Source: Candidatus Woesearchaeota archaeon
GTDB lineage: Archaea > Nanobdellota > Nanobdellia > Pacearchaeales > GW2011-AR1
NCBI GenBank assembly: GCA_964385425.1
Contig: CAYLOQ010000002.1
Span: 12,714-76,713, forward strand
Direction of reading: 5' to 3'
Length of the DNA stretch: 64,000 nt
The notes under the pieces were generated by a model that saw only the letters and a list, made by a program, of their open reading frames with translations, searched no databases and was not told the DNA's origin. A program made the translations under genes and the position numbers. Shown piece by piece: positions 600 to 63,012 of the stretch; the first letter of the stretch is position 1, and the number at the start of each line of letters is the position of its first letter.

Positions 600-3077
600 C
601 TAACACTTTGAATAACCACAATCAAAACAAGTTGGTTCAAAACATCCAGAAACCATACTCACATTGGCACTAAAGCATTTAGGACAGGAAATTTTGAAAT
701 CATTTTGTTTTTCTTCAATCACCTGGTTATTTATCTTTCCGTTATTCTGGGGATCATTTGGTTTTAATCTACCTAGTTTAATTAAACTTTTTCTTAGTGC
801 TGTTGAAAGTGCATGGGGTATGGAATCTATCCTATTTTTTCCAAACCCGTATGGTTTTTCGGATTTTACAGAATTCAGATGCTTGAGAATTTTTACGGGA
901 TCTCCCCCCAACTCGAAATATTTTGAGAGCACTATTGCCAGTGCATTTGACAACCCTGAAATCTCTGTTCCACAAGGTGTTTTGTTCGCAAAGATTTTTG
1001 AGACGCCCTCCTCATCATAGTTTACATGAATGTGGATCGGTCCATGTCCTGTCTCAATCTGATAATAATCTGAAAATTCTTCGAGCTTCCCCTTTTCTTT
1101 TTTTTCTGTTTTTTTATCATTGATATTCAAAACCTGGAATTTTTTAGAACCATCCCGATAAATAGTAACTCCTTTTGCCCCATGTTTGTAAGCAAGCAGG
1201 TAAACTTCATTAACATCCTGAACAGTTGCATCGTTTTTTAAATTGACTGTTTTTGATACGGCATTGTCTGTATACTTTTGGAAAGCACATTGCATCATGA
1301 CGTGATCTCTAGGGCTTAGATCATGAGATGTTAAAAATAAATGTTGTATTTCTTCTGGAATTTCTTTAATCCCTTTAAGTGATTTATGATTATTGTTTAT
1401 TTTCGTATATAGTTCTTCTTGCCCTAAACCAAAATAATCATTTTCTTTAGAAATTTTTTCAAATAACGGATTAACCTCAAAGAAAACATCTTTTTCCATC
1501 GGTTTTTCCCCTTTTTTTAGAGCGTCAATTCCCTGGGCATTATATCTTGTATAAACTATAGCAAAAAAAGGCTCTATTCCAGCACCCTGTAATCCAGCAG
1601 TAATCCCTATAGTCCCTGTGGGGGCAATGGTGGTTCTTGCAGAATGTCGTGGATAAAATTCCTGTTCTCTAAAATAAGGCCCCTCCTTGTCATAAATAGA
1701 ATTTTTCCAAGCAGGAAAGATACCCCTCTTCTCCGCTAATTCTTCCGAAGCTCTCATACAGGAAACATTAATGAACTGCATAACTTCTTCTGCTTTTTCC
1801 AATGCTTCTTTAGAATTATACGGGACCCCCATCATAACCAAAGATTCTGCCCACCCCATAACACCCAAACCAATCCTCCTGGTTTTCTTAGCCACCCTCT
1901 CTATTTCTGGTATTGGGTAATTATTGATATCAATAACATTATCTAGGAAATGTGTGCAGGCAAATACACATTTTTTTAAAGCTTCATAATCAAAATCAGA
2001 ATTATCTTCTTTTATAAATTTTGAAAGGTTAATTGAACCTAAATTACAGGGTTCGTATGGAAGTAAGGGTTGTTCTCCACAAGGGTTTGTCGCTTCTATC
2101 TGTCCTAAATTAGGGGTTGCGTTACTTCCTGTATTATTTATTCTGTCAATAAAGATTATCCCTGGATCCCCTGTTTCCCAAGCACCTTTCACTAATTTTT
2201 CCCACACTTCTTTTGCGTTTAATTTCCCAACTGCTTCACCATCCCTTGGATTTATAAGTTCATATTCCTCATTATTTCTTACAGCCCCCATAAATTTCTC
2301 ATCTACTGTTACAGACACATTAAAATTCTCCATAACACCCTGAGTTTTTTTCATTTCTATAAATTCTAGAATGTTTGGGTGTGTGTAATGAAGAATACCC
2401 ATGTTGGCCCCTCTTCTAGTCCCTCCTTGTTTAACAACTTCCGTGGATTTATCAAATATCTGCATAAATGTAACAGGTCCTGAAGAGACGCCTGTTGTTG
2501 ATTTTACAAGATCCCCTGTAGGTCTTAATCTTGAAAAAGAAAACCCTGTTCCACCACCACTCTGATGTATTAAAGCCATATTTTTGACAGAAGAATAAAT
2601 GTCTTCAATAGAATCTTCAACAGGTAAAACATAACACGCACTCAATTGCTGTAAATCTCTTCCGGCATTCATTAGGGTTGGAGAATTTGGAAGAAACTTG
2701 AAATTGGAAAGCAGTTCATAGAATTTTTCTTCAGTTTCAGAAATTATCTCCGGATTTTTTCTATTAATTTTCTCTAGATTTTCAAGGAATTTTCTGAAAT
2801 TCCTATATCTAAAATCAGGACTTTTAAAATCCCCATGGAGTAAAAATAGATTAACCATTCTTTTTCTAGACTCATATGGAACTCTTTCGTAATCCACCCC
2901 TTCAAAAATGTCAGATTCTGATACTTTTTCAGAATGCAAAATATTAGAAAGCGCAATATTATGACAAATATTTCTCAACCATTCTTCTATAGTTGGAGAC
3001 CCCTTCAAATATTTGTCTTTTATGACCTTCAGTTGATTTTCAGTTAAATCTAATTTTGTTAATTGCTTTAGTTCCAT
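600..3077 (-). CDS. nrdJ: adenosylcobalamin-dependent ribonucleotide reductase (class II, NrdJ)
   Basis: 825 aa; NPCGEQPLLPYEPCNLGSINL active-site motif, C-terminal CxxC...CxxC zinc ribbon; no intein insertion. Confidence 0.9.
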   Translation of the reverse strand: MELKQLTKLDLTENQLKVIKDKYLKGSPTIEEWLRNICHNIALSNILHSEKVSESDIFEGVDYERVPYESRKRMVNLFLLHGDFKSPDFRYRNFRKFLENLEKINRKNPEIISETEEKFYELLSNFKFLPNSPTLMNAGRDLQQLSACYVLPVEDSIEDIYSSVKNMALIHQSGGGTGFSFSRLRPTGDLVKSTTGVSSGPVTFMQIFDKSTEVVKQGGTRRGANMGILHYTHPNILEFIEMKKTQGVMENFNVSVTVDEKFMGAVRNNEEYELINPRDGEAVGKLNAKEVWEKLVKGAWETGDPGIIFIDRINNTGSNATPNLGQIEATNPCGEQPLLPYEPCNLGSINLSKFIKEDNSDFDYEALKKCVFACTHFLDNVIDINNYPIPEIERVAKKTRRIGLGVMGWAESLVMMGVPYNSKEALEKAEEVMQFINVSCMRASEELAEKRGIFPAWKNSIYDKEGPYFREQEFYPRHSARTTIAPTGTIGITAGLQGAGIEPFFAIVYTRYNAQGIDALKKGEKPMEKDVFFEVNPLFEKISKENDYFGLGQEELYTKINNNHKSLKGIKEIPEEIQHLFLTSHDLSPRDHVMMQCAFQKYTDNAVSKTVNLKNDATVQDVNEVYLLAYKHGAKGVTIYRDGSKKFQVLNINDKKTEKKEKGKLEEFSDYYQIETGHGPIHIHVNYDEEGVSKIFANKTPCGTEISGLSNALAIVLSKYFELGGDPVKILKHLNSVKSEKPYGFGKNRIDSIPHALSTALRKSLIKLGRLKPNDPQNNGKINNQVIEEKQNDFKISCPKCFSANVSMVSGCFEPTCFDCGYSKC

Positions 3078-4905: not shown

Positions 4906-5106
4906 ATGAAACCTAAGAATATGTGATTTATAAAATTTTCTTCAGACAGTTAAATTAATAAATATCTATTTTTTCTCTACTAAACGTTTTCTAGATTAAA
5001 ATGACTAAAATAGTAATGGCTAAGGAAAGGAAAGCTTCTGAAATAAAGAAGGTATTGCACCCTTTGTAAAAGATTATATATACACATACTAAAAGTATTT
5101 AAAGGT

Positions 5107-6120
5107 ATGGTGTATAAATCTTATATGTTTTATAATAATTTATCCAAAAAGAAAATTATGAAGATATATTCTTTTGTTATAAATAAAAGAAAAAAAGAAG
5201 GTTTTGGACAGAGGAAATTATCTCGGTTGGTTAATAAGAAACTTGGTACTAACATTCATGAAAACACAATTGCTAACTGGATTTATCTTGGAAAAGTTCC
5301 GTTTGGAAATGAAAAAACACAATTCAAACCATTACCAAAACCAACGAAAGAAGAACTTTACAAACCATATATTGAAGAAAAACAGAGTGCCCAAAAAATT
5401 TCTAAAAAATATAAAGTTTCAACTATTGTGGTTATTAATTGGATAAAAAATTATAATATTCCAATAAGAACACATAAAGAATCTATGAATACCTTCACCG
5501 TTAAAGAGATTTTGAGAAATAAAAAATTAAAACAACCAAAGAAGTCTTTTATTAAATTATCTCCAGCGAAGGCATATATTTTAGGTGTTTTATGTGGAGA
5601 TGGTCATATTAACAAGAAAAGTGTTAGGTTTGAAATAAGAAAGGACAAGGAATTTATTGAAAAATTTTCAAGCTGTTTTAAAGAAGTTTATGGTATTAAA
5701 TATAAACATTATTATTATGCTAAGAGAGATACTTATATTTTATATGTTTCCTCCCAAATAATTTGTAGAGATTTATTAAATTATGGTGATTTTGGAACTT
5801 TTGTCTGGAAAGTTCCTAAGGGAGTTTTGAATAGTAAAAGTGATAAAATTATTTCCAATTTCTTAAAAGGATTTTATGATAGCGAGGGATCTGCCAGTAG
5901 ATACTGTGTTAGTGTTTCTTCATCAAATAAAGTTGGAATAAAGGACATAAGTTTGTTATTATTTAAATTTGGGATTAAAAATAAAATTATACTTACTAAA
6001 AAAAATCATTATGTGATTAACATTACTGGAAGAGAAAGACTTAAAACGTTTAGAGATGGGATAGGTTTTACCATTAAAAGAAAAATGAAGAATATTTATA
6101 TCAAAAATGACACGGATTAA
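5107..6120 (+). CDS. free-standing LAGLIDADG homing-endonuclease family protein with N-terminal HTH domains
   Basis: Two LAGLIDADG motifs: AYILGVLCGDGHI and FLKGFYDSEGSA; N-terminal basic HTH-like segments. 3' end overlaps the helicase start by 14 nt. Confidence 0.8.
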   Translation: MVYKSYMFYNNLSKKKIMKIYSFVINKRKKEGFGQRKLSRLVNKKLGTNIHENTIANWIYLGKVPFGNEKTQFKPLPKPTKEELYKPYIEEKQSAQKISKKYKVSTIVVINWIKNYNIPIRTHKESMNTFTVKEILRNKKLKQPKKSFIKLSPAKAYILGVLCGDGHINKKSVRFEIRKDKEFIEKFSSCFKEVYGIKYKHYYYAKRDTYILYVSSQIICRDLLNYGDFGTFVWKVPKGVLNSKSDKIISNFLKGFYDSEGSASRYCVSVSSSNKVGIKDISLLLFKFGIKNKIILTKKNHYVINITGRERLKTFRDGIGFTIKRKMKNIYIKNDTD

Positions 6121-8692
6121 ATTTATCCAAAAACCGAACTCTAATAAAGAAATCCATTCGGTTTTACATCCAATTGTTTCAGGTTGGTTTAAGAAGAAAT
6201 TCGGATCCTTTTCAGAATCCCAAAAATATTCCATAGTCCCAATCGAAAAAAGGAAAAATATACTTTTATCCTCTCCCACTGGAAGTGGTAAAACCTTATC
6301 AGCCTTTACTTCTATACTAAGTCACCTTATTGGGTTATCCGAGAAGGGAAAATTAGAGAACAAAATCTATGCAGTTTATACATCCCCATTAAAAGCATTA
6401 GCTGGAGATATTGAGGTTAATTTAATACAACCATTAAAAGAATTAGAAGAGTTGGCAGGTAAGAAATTTGGAATTAGAATCAGTTTAAGAACAGGAGATA
6501 CAACAACAGCAGAAAGAACCAAAATGCTAAAAAATCCACCACATATCTTTATAACAACTCCTGAATCTTTAGCTATAGTATTAACAAGTAAAAAATTCAT
6601 AGATCATCTGAGAGAAGTTGAATTTTGCATTGTTGATGAGATCCATTCTTTGGATAATAAACGAGGAACCTACCTGAGTCTTACGCTAGAAAGACTAAAC
6701 GAAGTCTCCTCTGTTTGGCCTGTGAAAATCGGGCTCAGCGCAACAATAGAACCAATGGAAGAAGTTGCAAAATACTTGGTTGGAATTTCAGAAGACAGAA
6801 CAGTAGAGCTAGCAAAAATTAATCTGAATAAAAAAATGGACATCCAGGTTCTAAGTCCTGTTAAAGATATTGTTGAGGATGAAGGATTACATTTGAAAAT
6901 GTACAATCTTATTTCAACCCTGATTCTACAACATAAGACAACCTTAATTTTTACAAATACACGGTCTGCAACAGAACGCGTTGTTAACTACCTAAAAGAG
7001 CGATTCCCAACAGAATATGGGGATGATAACATAGCTGCCCATCATTCTTCCCTTAGCAAGGATCATAGATTCGATATAGAAGAAAAACTTAGGGATGGGA
7101 AACTTAAGGTTGTTGTTTGCTCTACTAGTTTGGAACTGGGAATTGATATAGGATATATAGATCTTGTTTTAATGCTCGGATCCCCAAAATCCAGTTCAAG
7201 AGCATTACAAAGGTTGGGAAGAGCAGGTCATAAGCTCCATAATATTTCAAAGGGAAGATTTGTTATTTTAGACAGAGACGACCTTGTGGAATGTTCTGTT
7301 ATCCAAAAAGAAATGGTTGAAAGAAAAATAAACAAGATTAAGTTCCCGAAAAATTGCCTCGATGTTCTTGCACAGCAGATTTATGGTATGGCCATCTATA
7401 AAGTCTGGAAGGACAAAGAACTCTTAGAATTGATAAGAAAGAGTTATTGTTACCATTCTCTGCCAAAAAATGATTTCTTAGATATAATAAGCTACTTGTC
7501 TGGAGAATATGCATTGGAGAAAAATAACGTCTATGGAAAAATTTGGTATGATCCAGAGACCAAAGAAATAGGAAAAAGAGGAAAACTGGCCCGTGTCCTC
7601 TATCTGACTAACATAGGGACAATTCCGGAAGAATCTTTTGTAAAAGTAAAAATAGCCAGCACACAAGAAAATATTGGCGTGATTGACGAATCGTTTTTAT
7701 CAAGGATGAGGAAGGGGGATGTTTTTGTTCTTGGCGGAAGAAAATACCTTTATAGATATACTAGAGGAATGAACCTCTATGTCGCATCAGAAGTTTCTAG
7801 GAATCCGAACATCCCTTCTTGGTTTTCAGAGATGTTGCCTTTAAGTTTTGATTCTGCTTCGGAAATAAATACATTTAGAAAATTAATGAATAAAAAACTT
7901 GGCTCCAACGACCCAAAAAATCAAATTACAAAATTTATCATGTCTTACCTGTATGTCCCAGAAGCTACAGCAGAGGCTATTTATAATTATTTTCTGGAAC
8001 AACACTCTTTTTTAGAAATTCCTCATAAAAATAGCATAGTTGTAGAGAAATTTATTGATCAAGAAAAAAAATATTTAATCTTTCACACCCTCTACGGTCG
8101 CAGGGTAAACGATGTCTTATCAAGAGCACTGGGTTATATTATTGGAGATCTTGGAGGAAGAGATGTTGAACTGGGGATTTCAGATAACGGCTTCTACTTG
8201 TCAGGAGAAAACATGATGATTAAAAGAGCACTCAAAACTCTGAGGGAAAAGAATCTGGAAGATATATTAAAAGAATCGATAGAAAGAACAGATGTTTTAG
8301 CCCGCAGATTTAGGCATTGCGCAACAAGGGCTCTTATGATTTTAAGAAGCTATAAAGGAAGAAGAAAAACTGTTGGGAAGCAGCAGATGAAATCCCATTT
8401 TCTACTTGCTGCAGTTAGAAAAATAAGTAAAGAATTTCCAATATTAAGAGAAGCTAGGAGAGAAGTTTTAGAAGACTTAATGGATATTGAAAACTCAATG
8501 CTAGTTCTCCAGGATATAGAAAAAGGAAAGACAAAGATAAAAATATTAGAAACTAAGCTTCCTTCTCCATTTGCCCTAAATTTAATTTTGCAAGGACATT
8601 CAGATTTAATCAGGATCGAAGATAAGCAGGATTTTTTGAGAAGAATGCACAAGCTTCACATCCAAAACATATTTGAAAATGCAGGAGATTAA
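6107..8692 (+). CDS. lhr: Lhr-family ATP-dependent helicase (Lhr-core, superfamily 2)
   Basis: Walker A SSPTGSGKT, DEIH box, SAT, QRLGRAGH motif VI, long C-terminal Lhr-type extension; 861 aa. Confidence 0.85.
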   Translation: MTRIKFIQKPNSNKEIHSVLHPIVSGWFKKKFGSFSESQKYSIVPIEKRKNILLSSPTGSGKTLSAFTSILSHLIGLSEKGKLENKIYAVYTSPLKALAGDIEVNLIQPLKELEELAGKKFGIRISLRTGDTTTAERTKMLKNPPHIFITTPESLAIVLTSKKFIDHLREVEFCIVDEIHSLDNKRGTYLSLTLERLNEVSSVWPVKIGLSATIEPMEEVAKYLVGISEDRTVELAKINLNKKMDIQVLSPVKDIVEDEGLHLKMYNLISTLILQHKTTLIFTNTRSATERVVNYLKERFPTEYGDDNIAAHHSSLSKDHRFDIEEKLRDGKLKVVVCSTSLELGIDIGYIDLVLMLGSPKSSSRALQRLGRAGHKLHNISKGRFVILDRDDLVECSVIQKEMVERKINKIKFPKNCLDVLAQQIYGMAIYKVWKDKELLELIRKSYCYHSLPKNDFLDIISYLSGEYALEKNNVYGKIWYDPETKEIGKRGKLARVLYLTNIGTIPEESFVKVKIASTQENIGVIDESFLSRMRKGDVFVLGGRKYLYRYTRGMNLYVASEVSRNPNIPSWFSEMLPLSFDSASEINTFRKLMNKKLGSNDPKNQITKFIMSYLYVPEATAEAIYNYFLEQHSFLEIPHKNSIVVEKFIDQEKKYLIFHTLYGRRVNDVLSRALGYIIGDLGGRDVELGISDNGFYLSGENMMIKRALKTLREKNLEDILKESIERTDVLARRFRHCATRALMILRSYKGRRKTVGKQQMKSHFLLAAVRKISKEFPILREARREVLEDLMDIENSMLVLQDIEKGKTKIKILETKLPSPFALNLILQGHSDLIRIEDKQDFLRRMHKLHIQNIFENAGD

Positions 8693-9413
8693 TTTTCAAT
8701 TCATAGACAAAACGGCATTTTTCCCTGAAAAAGGAATCCTCGTAATTGGAGATTTGCACATAGGTTATGATTACTCTTTGATTCAGTCAGGAATCTTGAT
8801 TCCAGAGAGACAGGTTAAAGAAATAATAGGGGACCTCAAGGTAACCTTCAGCAAAATAAAGAAAAAAGGATATGATCTTAAAAAAATAGTTTTTCTAGGA
8901 GATATAAAACATTCTTTTTCTTATGAGCCCAAAGAAAGAAACGAGTTTCACGAGGTTCTTGAGTTTCTTAGGGGGGTTTTGCCAGAAGAAAATATAATAC
9001 TAATAAAAGGGAACCACGATACAATTGATTACACTTTTGAAGGGTTAATGAAAGAATATTATCTAGAAGGAGACATGGCATTTCTTCATGGCAACAAATC
9101 ATTTCCAGAAATCTTCGACAAGAAAATAAAAATTATTGTTATGGGACATCTTCATCCTTCTATAATACTCGAAGAAAAACCAGGAGTTAAAAAAGAAGAT
9201 TTTAAGTGTTTTCTTCAAGGAAGGTATAAGAAAAAAACATTCTTGGTTGTTCCAAGTTTCCTTAATATAATTGAGGGTTCTAATGTAAATGAATATGCTT
9301 CGAGGGAAAATAATGACTTCTCCATAGTTCCCAAAAAAGCTCTTCTAAACTTTAACGCACATGTAATCGGAAAAGAGGATGTTTATGATTTTGGGAAGGT
9401 TAGAGATTTGTAA
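8673..9413 (+). CDS. metallophosphoesterase (MPE-like, calcineurin-fold phosphoesterase)
   Basis: GDLHIG...GDIKHS...GNHD...GHLHP metal-binding motifs; overlaps the lhr stop as in bacterial Lhr-MPE operons. Confidence 0.75.
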   Translation: MKMQEINFQFIDKTAFFPEKGILVIGDLHIGYDYSLIQSGILIPERQVKEIIGDLKVTFSKIKKKGYDLKKIVFLGDIKHSFSYEPKERNEFHEVLEFLRGVLPEENIILIKGNHDTIDYTFEGLMKEYYLEGDMAFLHGNKSFPEIFDKKIKIIVMGHLHPSIILEEKPGVKKEDFKCFLQGRYKKKTFLVVPSFLNIIEGSNVNEYASRENNDFSIVPKKALLNFNAHVIGKEDVYDFGKVRDL

Positions 9414-12207: not shown

Positions 12208-12816
12208 ATGTTCTATTTAACAGAAGTCGAAGATCATATCAGAGTAGAGCCCAAGTTATTCGGTTTGCCTACTATTGAAGCTGTAAATAAGCAGCTCAGA
12301 GAAACTTATGCAGACTACTACGATAAGGAACTTGGAAGAGTTATATCTGTGATTGATGTTTTGAATGTTGGAGAAGGCGTGATAATCCCTGGAGATGGTG
12401 CAGCTTATTATAACTCTACATTTAAATTGTTGGTGTGGAAACCAGAGCTCCAAGAGTTAGTTTATGGAACAATCTCAGAAATAACAAGTTTCGGAGCATT
12501 TATCGATATGGGGGTAATGAAAGGAATGATCCATATCAGCCAGACCATGGAAGATTTTGTTAGTTTTAGCAAGACCAATACATTGCTTGGAAAATCCACA
12601 AAAAGAAGTTTAAAACAAGGGGATTTGTGCGTAGCAAGAATAGTTGCTGTTAGTCATAAGGGAGAGGAAACAAAAATAGGACTGACAATGAGGCAACCAG
12701 GCTTGGGAAAACTTGAATGGCTCAAGGAAGATCAGATTAAAAAAGATAAAGAAGCGAAGAAGGCTGCAAGAGAAGAACAAAAAAGTGTAAAAGCGAAAGG
12801 AGGGAAAAAGAAATGA
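12208..12816 (+). CDS. rpoE: DNA-directed RNA polymerase subunit E' (Rpo7)
   Basis: MFYLTEVEDHIRVEPKLFG... with S1 domain (GTISEITSFGAFIDMG), K-rich tail. Confidence 0.85.
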   Translation: MFYLTEVEDHIRVEPKLFGLPTIEAVNKQLRETYADYYDKELGRVISVIDVLNVGEGVIIPGDGAAYYNSTFKLLVWKPELQELVYGTISEITSFGAFIDMGVMKGMIHISQTMEDFVSFSKTNTLLGKSTKRSLKQGDLCVARIVAVSHKGEETKIGLTMRQPGLGKLEWLKEDQIKKDKEAKKAAREEQKSVKAKGGKKK

Positions 12817-61730: not shown

Positions 61731-61866
61731 GGTCCTATAGTCCAGTGGTTAAGACACCTCGTTTACACGCAGAAGAACCAAGTTTCTTCCGTACCATCTC
61801 CTTTTCGTGGAGAAGCGGAAACTGCTAAAAGCCGAGGAAACAGCAGTTCGATTCTGCTTAGGACCA
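61731..61866 (+). tRNA. tRNA-Val (anticodon TAC) with about 64-nt intron at canonical 37/38 position
   Basis: Acceptor GGTCCTA/TAGGACC, anticodon stem CCTCG/CGAGG, loop TTTACA|intron|C, T-arm AGCAG-TTCGATT-CTGCT. Confidence 0.75.
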
Positions 61867-62879: not shown

Positions 62880-63012
62880 GCGTGAGTAGTATAGTGGTTA
62901 GTATATTTCGTTGCCAATGCCCAACTTTAGAAAAGTTCGGCGCTCAAATAAGACGATCAAATAAGAGCAAAGCGAAAACGAAGTGACCCGGGTTCGACTC
63001 CCGGCTCGCGCA
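62880..63012 (+). tRNA. tRNA-Gly (anticodon GCC) with about 60-nt intron at 37/38
   Basis: Acceptor GCGTGAG/CTCGCGC, anticodon stem TTTCG/CGAAG, loop TTGCCA|intron, T-arm CCGGG-TTCGACT-CCCGG, discriminator A. Confidence 0.7.

Follow-up and report, generated by a model that had tools for sequence, protein, structure and literature searches.

A free-standing LAGLIDADG endonuclease gene at the 5' end of lhr in DPANN archaea is probably a mobile homing cassette that brings a replacement lhr start

The 64,000-nucleotide (nt) stretch of DNA analysed here (the window) comes from a Candidatus Woesearchaeota archaeon (GCA_964385425.1, contig CAYLOQ010000002.1, forward-strand positions 12,714 to 76,713) and carries, directly at the 5' end of the helicase gene lhr, a gene for a LAGLIDADG endonuclease, which is the subject of this report (Table 1). 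Downstream of lhr lies a metallophosphoesterase (MPE) gene. The lhr ATG sits 14 nt within the endonuclease open reading frame (ORF), in another reading frame, and lhr in turn overlaps the MPE gene by 20 nt with a TTG start or by 14 nt with the ATG at 8679; both overlaps had been claimed in a preliminary description of this DNA and are seen in the ORFs. The host genes of the window are a typical archaeal aLhr2-MPE pair, with the helicase matching the Pfam profiles DEAD, Helicase_C, WH_Lhr and DEAD_assoc as well as PRK13767 (NCBIfam, 1115 bits), and the phosphoesterase matching Metallophos (Pfam) and TIGR00024 (NCBIfam, 116.6 bits).

The ORF and its two LAGLIDADG motifs (ILGVLCGDGHI at residues 158-168 and FLKGFYDSEGS at residues 252-262, in the 337-amino-acid (aa) numbering used throughout) lie where the preliminary description had placed them. 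The length given there holds for the longest ORF but probably not for the protein itself, since the ATG at 5125 (MFYNNL..., 331 aa) is the start used in a database copy (P0001) and in most orthologs, and since a TATA-like motif ends a few bases from the ATG at 5107 and so crowds the longer form. The gene is free-standing, because a Pfam search of the ORF finds no Intein_splicing domain, there is no in-frame fusion, its frame is not that of lhr, and an Rfam scan of the window for intron RNA gave tRNAs only; the earlier statement that it sits inside neither an intron nor an intein is thereby upheld.

Table 1. Features at the lhr locus, in positions of the window
Feature	Positions	Strand	Description
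Old "type 1" lhr start, truncated	5001..5069	+	MTKIVMAKERKASEIKKVLHPL, 22 codons + stop
TATA-like motif	5092..5105	+	AAAGTATTTAAAGG, about 20-33 nt before the endonuclease ATG
LAGLIDADG ORF, longest form	5107-6120	+	337 aa
Endonuclease gene, likely extent	5125..6120	+	331 aa, HTH-HTH-LAGLIDADG (HTH, helix-turn-helix), free-standing
D165 codon	5599-5601	+	GAT
E260 codon	5884-5886	+	GAG
lhr	6107-8692	+	861 aa, Lhr-core, aLhr2-like; host gene of the insertion
"Type 2" lhr 5' segment	6107..6500	+	approximately first 390 nt: Q motif, Walker A GSGKT, motif Ia; 3' boundary approximate
MPE gene	8673-9413	+	246 aa, metallophosphoesterase, SbcD-related; outside the proposed mobile cassette

In a Pfam search, two stretches of the ORF match LAGLIDADG_3 (2e-15), with a further weak match to LAGLIDADG_WhiA and a sub-threshold match of the N-terminal segments to HTH_23 (E 0.018). 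The AlphaFold2 (AF2) model, computed with 37 homologs as input (predicted local distance difference test (pLDDT) 90.3), has two three-helix modules at its N-terminus ahead of a single-chain double LAGLIDADG core; these modules, together with the HTH_23 match, bear out the HTH-like segments that had been noticed at the N-terminus. The nearest structures in Foldseek are the TliVMA intein endonuclease, I-DmoI (template modelling score of approximately 0.7 on the target), I-Tsp061I and PI-PfuI, with WhiA at rank 48, so that Pfam, AF2 and Foldseek concur in the pseudo-symmetric alpha-beta-beta-alpha-beta-beta-alpha fold of a single-chain, double-motif LAGLIDADG enzyme. A sequence profile search of the PDB returned PI-PfuI at 3e-13, and the acidic motif residues of PI-PfuI and TliVMA align with D165 and E260, the catalytic Asp and Glu that close the two motifs. 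Whether these residues are intact had been named as a check, and both are kept: in an alignment of 37 sequences that reaches down to 37% identity, D165 never varies and E260 is conserved in at least 90%, the exceptions being mostly D. The same alignment has 33 invariant columns, and the N-terminal HTH region is strongly conserved too. The gene is under purifying selection, with a ratio of nonsynonymous to synonymous substitution rates (dN/dS) of 0.12 between the two closest copies, at loci L075 and L076 (dS 0.72; loci are designated by our own L numbers). Because the Asp and Glu are conserved, the fold is like that of I-DmoI and PI-PfuI, and dN/dS is approximately 0.1, the protein looks like a functional nuclease, as predicted from its sequence, rather than a relic.

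A database search returned 143 relatives of the endonuclease, about 100 of them full length, and those with source names belong to Nanoarchaeota, Woesearchaeota, Pacearchaeota and Aenigmatarchaeota. When the window and every full-length ortholog with readable context are considered (23 distinct loci, all in DPANN archaea, 37-68% identity), we observe the gene directly at the 5' end of lhr in 23 of 23. It lies upstream of lhr and co-directional with it in 20 loci, with spacings from an overlap of 14 nt up to a gap of approximately 110 nt, and head-to-head with lhr in the other three (L019, L023 and L136), where the partner is a distinct Lhr type, with 29-32% identity in L019 and L023 and a length of 933-943 aa in those loci where it was sized. 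Distant paralogs that have the LAGLIDADG domain alone never adjoin lhr. A viral origin was considered and rejected, as no member of the endonuclease family turned up when viral contigs were scanned. At an Aenigmatarchaeota locus with a head-to-head endonuclease gene, we also observe a reverse transcriptase gene (RVT_1, 354 aa; L004:3993-5057) beside the Lhr gene.

With the window Lhr protein as query, the 80 closest metagenome lhr loci (66-81% identity) were sampled, and occupancy was counted in the 64 of them with at least 1.1 kb upstream of lhr. Comparison of these upstream regions, another check named in the preliminary description, finds the endonuclease gene in 3 of the 64 close loci and not in the remaining 61, a presence/absence polymorphism at one site among relatives. 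A sensitive six-frame profile search of the sampled loci revealed no hidden copies and one short remnant (L078). In a neighbour-joining tree of 97 Lhr proteins (distance method, no bootstrap support), carriers occupy at least four separate places of the close Lhr clade, each adjoining empty relatives: the window with L006 and L071; L005; L075 and L076 beside L129, L131 and L119; and L001 beside L117. One and the same metagenome, Ga0247842, yields the carriers L075 and L076 and the empty loci L129 and L119. An MPE homolog is found in the sequence around 49 of the 80 related lhr loci, in carriers and empty loci alike, and since it occurs with or without the endonuclease gene and most loci are empty, the endonuclease gene is no constant part of the Lhr-MPE module. 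Gene content just upstream of lhr is variable: in the empty locus L129, two other ORFs (179 aa and 102 aa; L129:3982-4930) occupy the space that the endonuclease gene takes up in L076, and the 179-aa product resembles by eye a DEDD-type 3'-5' exonuclease.

The start of lhr itself is mosaic. In blastn comparisons of carriers with their closest empty relatives, the flanks and the body of lhr align, whereas the endonuclease gene and the lhr start do not. Scanning lhr in 60-nt sliding windows, we observe 42-70% identity between L075 and L129 up to approximately nt 450, followed by 85-98%; 38-67% between L001 and L093 up to approximately nt 380, followed by about 80%; and 35-67% between the window and L067 up to approximately nt 390, with mostly 63-83% beyond. 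Two empty loci (L129 and L131) and two carriers (L075 and L076), compared among themselves as controls, show uniform identity. The step at lhr nt 380-480 is the pattern of co-conversion of flanking host sequence.

The first approximately 75 aa of Lhr are accordingly dimorphic, and the form co-segregates with the endonuclease gene. Type 1, to which L067 belongs, has the consensus ...HPLVxEWFFSKFKxFSLTQKYGVLNIWERKNILISAPTGGTKTLTAF..., and type 2, found in the window, has ...HPIVSxWFKKKFGSFSESQKYSIVPIxxRxNILLSSPTGSGKTLSAF..., the two being approximately 49% identical over residues 18-80. Among the counted loci, 57 are type 1 without the gene, none is type 1 with it, 3 are type 2 with it and 4 are type 2 without it (Fisher, P = 8e-4). 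The likeness of type-2 5' segments between lineages was initially taken as a possible sign of recent transfer and was dropped, as this region is intrinsically conserved within each type. The Walker A motif of type 1 is unusual, reading PTGGTKT (sometimes PTGSSKT or PTGSTKT), with the Gly before the Lys replaced (codons 55-62, in 70 of 80 aligned loci, e.g., L129:5160-5190); that of the type-2 allele is the canonical PTGSGKT (6269-6292 in the window).

Upstream of the endonuclease gene, four carrier lineages (L001, L006, L005 and the window) keep a truncated type-1 lhr start. The remnant in the window is 59% identical to the Lhr N-terminus of the empty locus L129 (E 5.7e-5; tblastn with N-termini from empty loci), and 17 of its 22 residues equal the type-1 consensus MTKI-IEAKERKDEEIKKILHPLV, which was hand-translated from the nucleotide consensus. 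The remnant in L001 is longer, with 40 codons before the stop (MTTIVQAEKNTSKEIMEVLHPLVKEWFFSKFQDFSPTQEY), and is 70% identical to the L093 Lhr N-terminus (E 1.6e-16); L006 has 27 codons (E 5.6e-8) and L005 approximately 17, the latter read by eye. In L001, homology with empty relatives also covers sequence ahead of the old ATG and breaks off exactly after lhr nt 120 (TQEY). The endonuclease gene thus landed within the coding region of lhr and left the old, truncated lhr start upstream.

The motif AAAGTATTTAAAGG recurs in every carrier of the window's clade and in several deeper lineages, at the same distance to the endonuclease ATG in L001, L005, L006, L075, L076, L007, L008, L009 and L010, and in weaker form in L020 and L023, and is probably an archaeal promoter of the element's own, with TATA box and B recognition element, that would give a leaderless or short-leader mRNA. 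At the other end of the process stands L078, an empty locus with a type-2 lhr start in which approximately the last 15 endonuclease codons (FFTIKRKMEVLKQLK, then the stop) directly precede the lhr ATG. Because a type-2 start and nothing but the 3' end of the gene remain there, L078 is a deletion derivative. A profile search upstream of lhr in the other type-2 empty loci (L056, L070 and L085) found no endonuclease remnant.

Taken together, the constant location, the patchy occurrence among close relatives, the co-converted flank, the disruption of the old sequence at the junction and the loss stage make up the standard signature of a homing endonuclease, and we consider it likely, judging from these sequence comparisons, that the LAGLIDADG gene is a mobile, selfish homing-endonuclease cassette with a replacement lhr start and not a working partner of Lhr. 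Of the two possibilities that the preliminary description had raised, invasion of the 5' end of the operon by a homing endonuclease is the one that patchy presence, mosaic lhr, old-start remnants and the L078 loss stage favour. In the window's clade the cassette would measure approximately 1.4-1.5 kb and comprise the TATA-like motif, the endonuclease gene and the diverged first 380-480 nt or so of lhr, with the lhr ATG overlapping the endonuclease stop codon. Related carriers show the same 14-nt overlap with lhr or one of 4 nt, and the 14-nt overlap is a property of the cassette, though it had suggested "translational coupling".

In the mechanism that we infer, which comprises cleavage, a target site, promoter function and DNA exchange between cells, the enzyme would cut an endonuclease-free type-1 lhr allele in its 5' region, and the break would be repaired from a genome bearing the cassette. 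The endonuclease gene and the cut-resistant type-2 lhr 5' segment would then be copied together (co-conversion), a process for which the label "intronless homing" would be appropriate, as no intron or intein surrounds the gene. The helicase would stay intact because the cassette brings a new start and N-terminus, and the displaced old start would decay upstream to a short pseudo-ORF. The endonuclease gene could later be deleted, with the resistant type-2 allele remaining. Our best guess for the cut site is codons 37-47 of type-1 lhr, between the Q motif and Walker A, because the L001 junction lies there and the two types differ there (at 13 of 20 positions just past nt 120, by a reading of the two consensus lines).

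Several observations weigh against the homing cassette or narrow its scope. The location of the cut is ambiguous, with the best-conserved 22-mers at lhr nt 70-100 and the L001 junction at nt 120. Strong purifying selection, together with the conservation across DPANN lineages, would be expected of a host-useful gene as well. Distances between endonucleases correlate moderately with those between Lhr bodies (r = 0.69-0.77), and near-identical cassettes did not turn up in distant backgrounds, so that transfers look old or local and loss looks recurrent; a long stay at the locus and recurrent loss would account for some of the patchiness. Empty loci were inspected over 5 kb on each side, so that the count concerns this neighbourhood and not the rest of those genomes. 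Finally, the deeper carriers L008, L010, L012 and L020, for which the sampling included no empty relatives, carry an Lhr N-terminus resembling type 1, and the dimorphism of types 1 and 2 is therefore specific to the window's clade.

The preliminary description had also raised the possibility of a domesticated host partner, a nuclease or regulator working with Lhr and MPE. Such a partner could be a site- or structure-specific nuclease or a WhiA-like transcription factor that controls lhr. Adjacency to lhr is kept across DPANN whichever way the gene points, and the head-to-head loci have the layout typical of regulators; the overlapping genes of the window's clade are probably co-transcribed, and both the low dN/dS and the conservation of the full length, N-terminal HTH region included, are what such a partner would show. 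We nevertheless regard this role as unlikely, since 61 of 64 close loci keep lhr, and often MPE, without the gene, carriers are dispersed over the Lhr tree, and the gene brings in a foreign 5' segment of lhr, leaves the old start truncated behind it and has been deleted again in L078. The regulator version in addition sits poorly with the catalytic residues being kept and with the low rank of WhiA in the fold search. A related idea, which we hold to be improbable, is that the cassette is more than selfish and installs a different helicase-nuclease module for repair or for conflict with other strains or mobile elements; the swap of the PTGGTKT for the PTGSGKT N-terminus and a predicted active, sequence-specific nuclease coupled to Lhr expression could be read in this way, and, if true, the cassette would be a homing endonuclease partway to domestication.

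Mosaic lhr genes and patchiness demonstrate recombination but not its trigger, and the cassette could have spread by ordinary horizontal transfer and homologous recombination, with the endonuclease inactive or cutting elsewhere and its activity irrelevant; the lack of near-identical cassettes in distant backgrounds fits this as well. Such a passive spread is also improbable in our estimation, because it does not account for every ortholog being at the 5' end of lhr though other neighbours differ between lineages, for an insertion in conserved coding sequence that is offset by a surrogate start, or for catalytic residues that are conserved among sequences as distant as those aligned here. Least probable of all is a decaying and currently inactive relic. 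The life cycle of homing endonucleases does predict decay after fixation, and one locus, L078, has a deletion, but the ORF in the window is intact with D165 and E260 in place, and the invariant alignment columns, the low dN/dS and the pLDDT of 90 do not suggest decay. The refuting case set out in the preliminary description, a decayed remnant that lacks catalytic residues and is never found at orthologous lhr operons, does not apply here.

Compared with known systems, the proposed cassette most resembles free-standing homing endonucleases outside archaea. In phage T4, the free-standing endonucleases seg and mob spread by intronless homing with co-conversion (PMC2988022), and as in that system we observe a gene that is outside any intron or intein, adjoins a conserved gene in which the cut site is presumed to be, is polymorphic for presence and absence, has a co-converted flank and is embedded in an operon whose downstream expression would not be abolished. 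Unlike seg and mob, the enzyme described here is of the LAGLIDADG family and resides in a cellular archaeal chromosome, its cleavage is predicted only, and the insertion lies within a coding region, where a surrogate 5' gene segment compensates for it. For this surrogate start, the nearest described parallel appears to be the free-standing LAGLIDADG and GIY-YIG genes of fungal mitochondria, which come with partial duplications of atp9, atp6 and cox1 (PMC7487136); there too a piece of the host gene travels along and the displaced piece persists as a pseudogene. Those cases are, however, organellar and concern mostly other genes, whereas here an archaeal ("nuclear-type") helicase gene is affected, its 5' end is the part replaced, and the element has its own promoter-like motif.

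With I-DmoI, PI-PfuI and TliVMA the protein shares the single-chain double-motif fold and the acidic residue that closes each motif, but these enzymes are encoded by an rRNA intron or by inteins, whereas here no Hint or splicing domain is fused in frame and two HTH modules are added at the N-terminus. WhiA has lost the catalytic residues, carries its HTH at the C-terminus and is universal in its lineage. The LAGLIDADG scaffold with HTH DNA-binding modules is common to both proteins, while the endonuclease described here keeps its catalytic residues, has the HTH modules at the N-terminus and is patchily distributed, so that neither catalytic loss nor uniform presence, as expected of a WhiA-like regulator, is found.

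The host genes conform to the Lhr-core/MPE module. Hajj et al. (2021) reported Lhr-MPE synteny in archaea including DPANN, as well as inteins with LAGLIDADG domains inside some aLhr2 genes (PMC8301817), and searching its text by terms turned up no free-standing gene upstream of lhr. In contrast to the pair as known, the endonuclease gene is no conserved third member, and most related loci are without it. A true intein is present for comparison in the 1330-aa Lhr of L009 (Pacearchaeota contig JACRHU010000038.1, 2501-6493), where it contains LAGLIDADG_3 and lies in RecA2 (approximately residues 372-842), and this locus holds the upstream free-standing gene as well. Descent of the free-standing gene from an Lhr intein was considered and rejected, as BLASTP of the L009 intein against the free-standing protein gives motif similarity only (E 0.016-0.095) and thus no specific relation. 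Full-text literature searches pairing LAGLIDADG with Lhr or with DPANN returned no description of this family.

If the homing cassette is the correct reading, the family described here is a clear, sequence-documented case of free-standing LAGLIDADG homing endonucleases in cellular archaeal chromosomes, for which metagenomes present all stages of homing: empty loci, loci occupied by the gene beside a co-converted flank, and loci from which it has been deleted. It would show an unusual way in which a coding region can be invaded without an intron or intein, by an element that brings a surrogate 5' gene segment and a promoter-like motif, and would imply DNA exchange and recombination among co-occurring DPANN populations. 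It also cautions that tight gene overlap in DPANN genomes does not equal functional coupling, and it bears on the possible origin of intein endonuclease domains from free-standing genes. With approximately 100 HTH-extended single-chain LAGLIDADG enzymes found in nature and a target region that can be predicted, the family may be of use in meganuclease engineering, and we expect it to be of moderate interest to those who work in that field, on mobile elements or on DPANN genome dynamics.

Some further observations concern other genes. Another lineage of free-standing LAGLIDADG proteins (e.g., L031:9989-10993), 30-37% identical to the core of the query, is found at six loci (L027, L031, L033, L035, L037 and L047), where it lies 110-410 nt downstream of a class II tRNA synthetase gene of the AspRS/AsnRS type, with a GatA amidase gene next after it in L031 and L047. 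These loci derive from Woesearchaeota and Nanoarchaeota and from one Hadesarchaea metagenome-assembled genome, which suggests that several site-specific families of free-standing endonucleases exist in these archaea. The ORF at the ribonucleotide reductase position is 997 aa in L056 (1098-4091, minus strand) versus 825 aa in the window (600-3077, minus strand), and the extra length in L056 could be an intein or other insertion. Elsewhere in the window, two Rfam tRNAs of 136 and 133 nt (61731-61866 and 62880-63012, plus strand), which have no ARAGORN call, are probably intron-containing archaeal tRNA genes.

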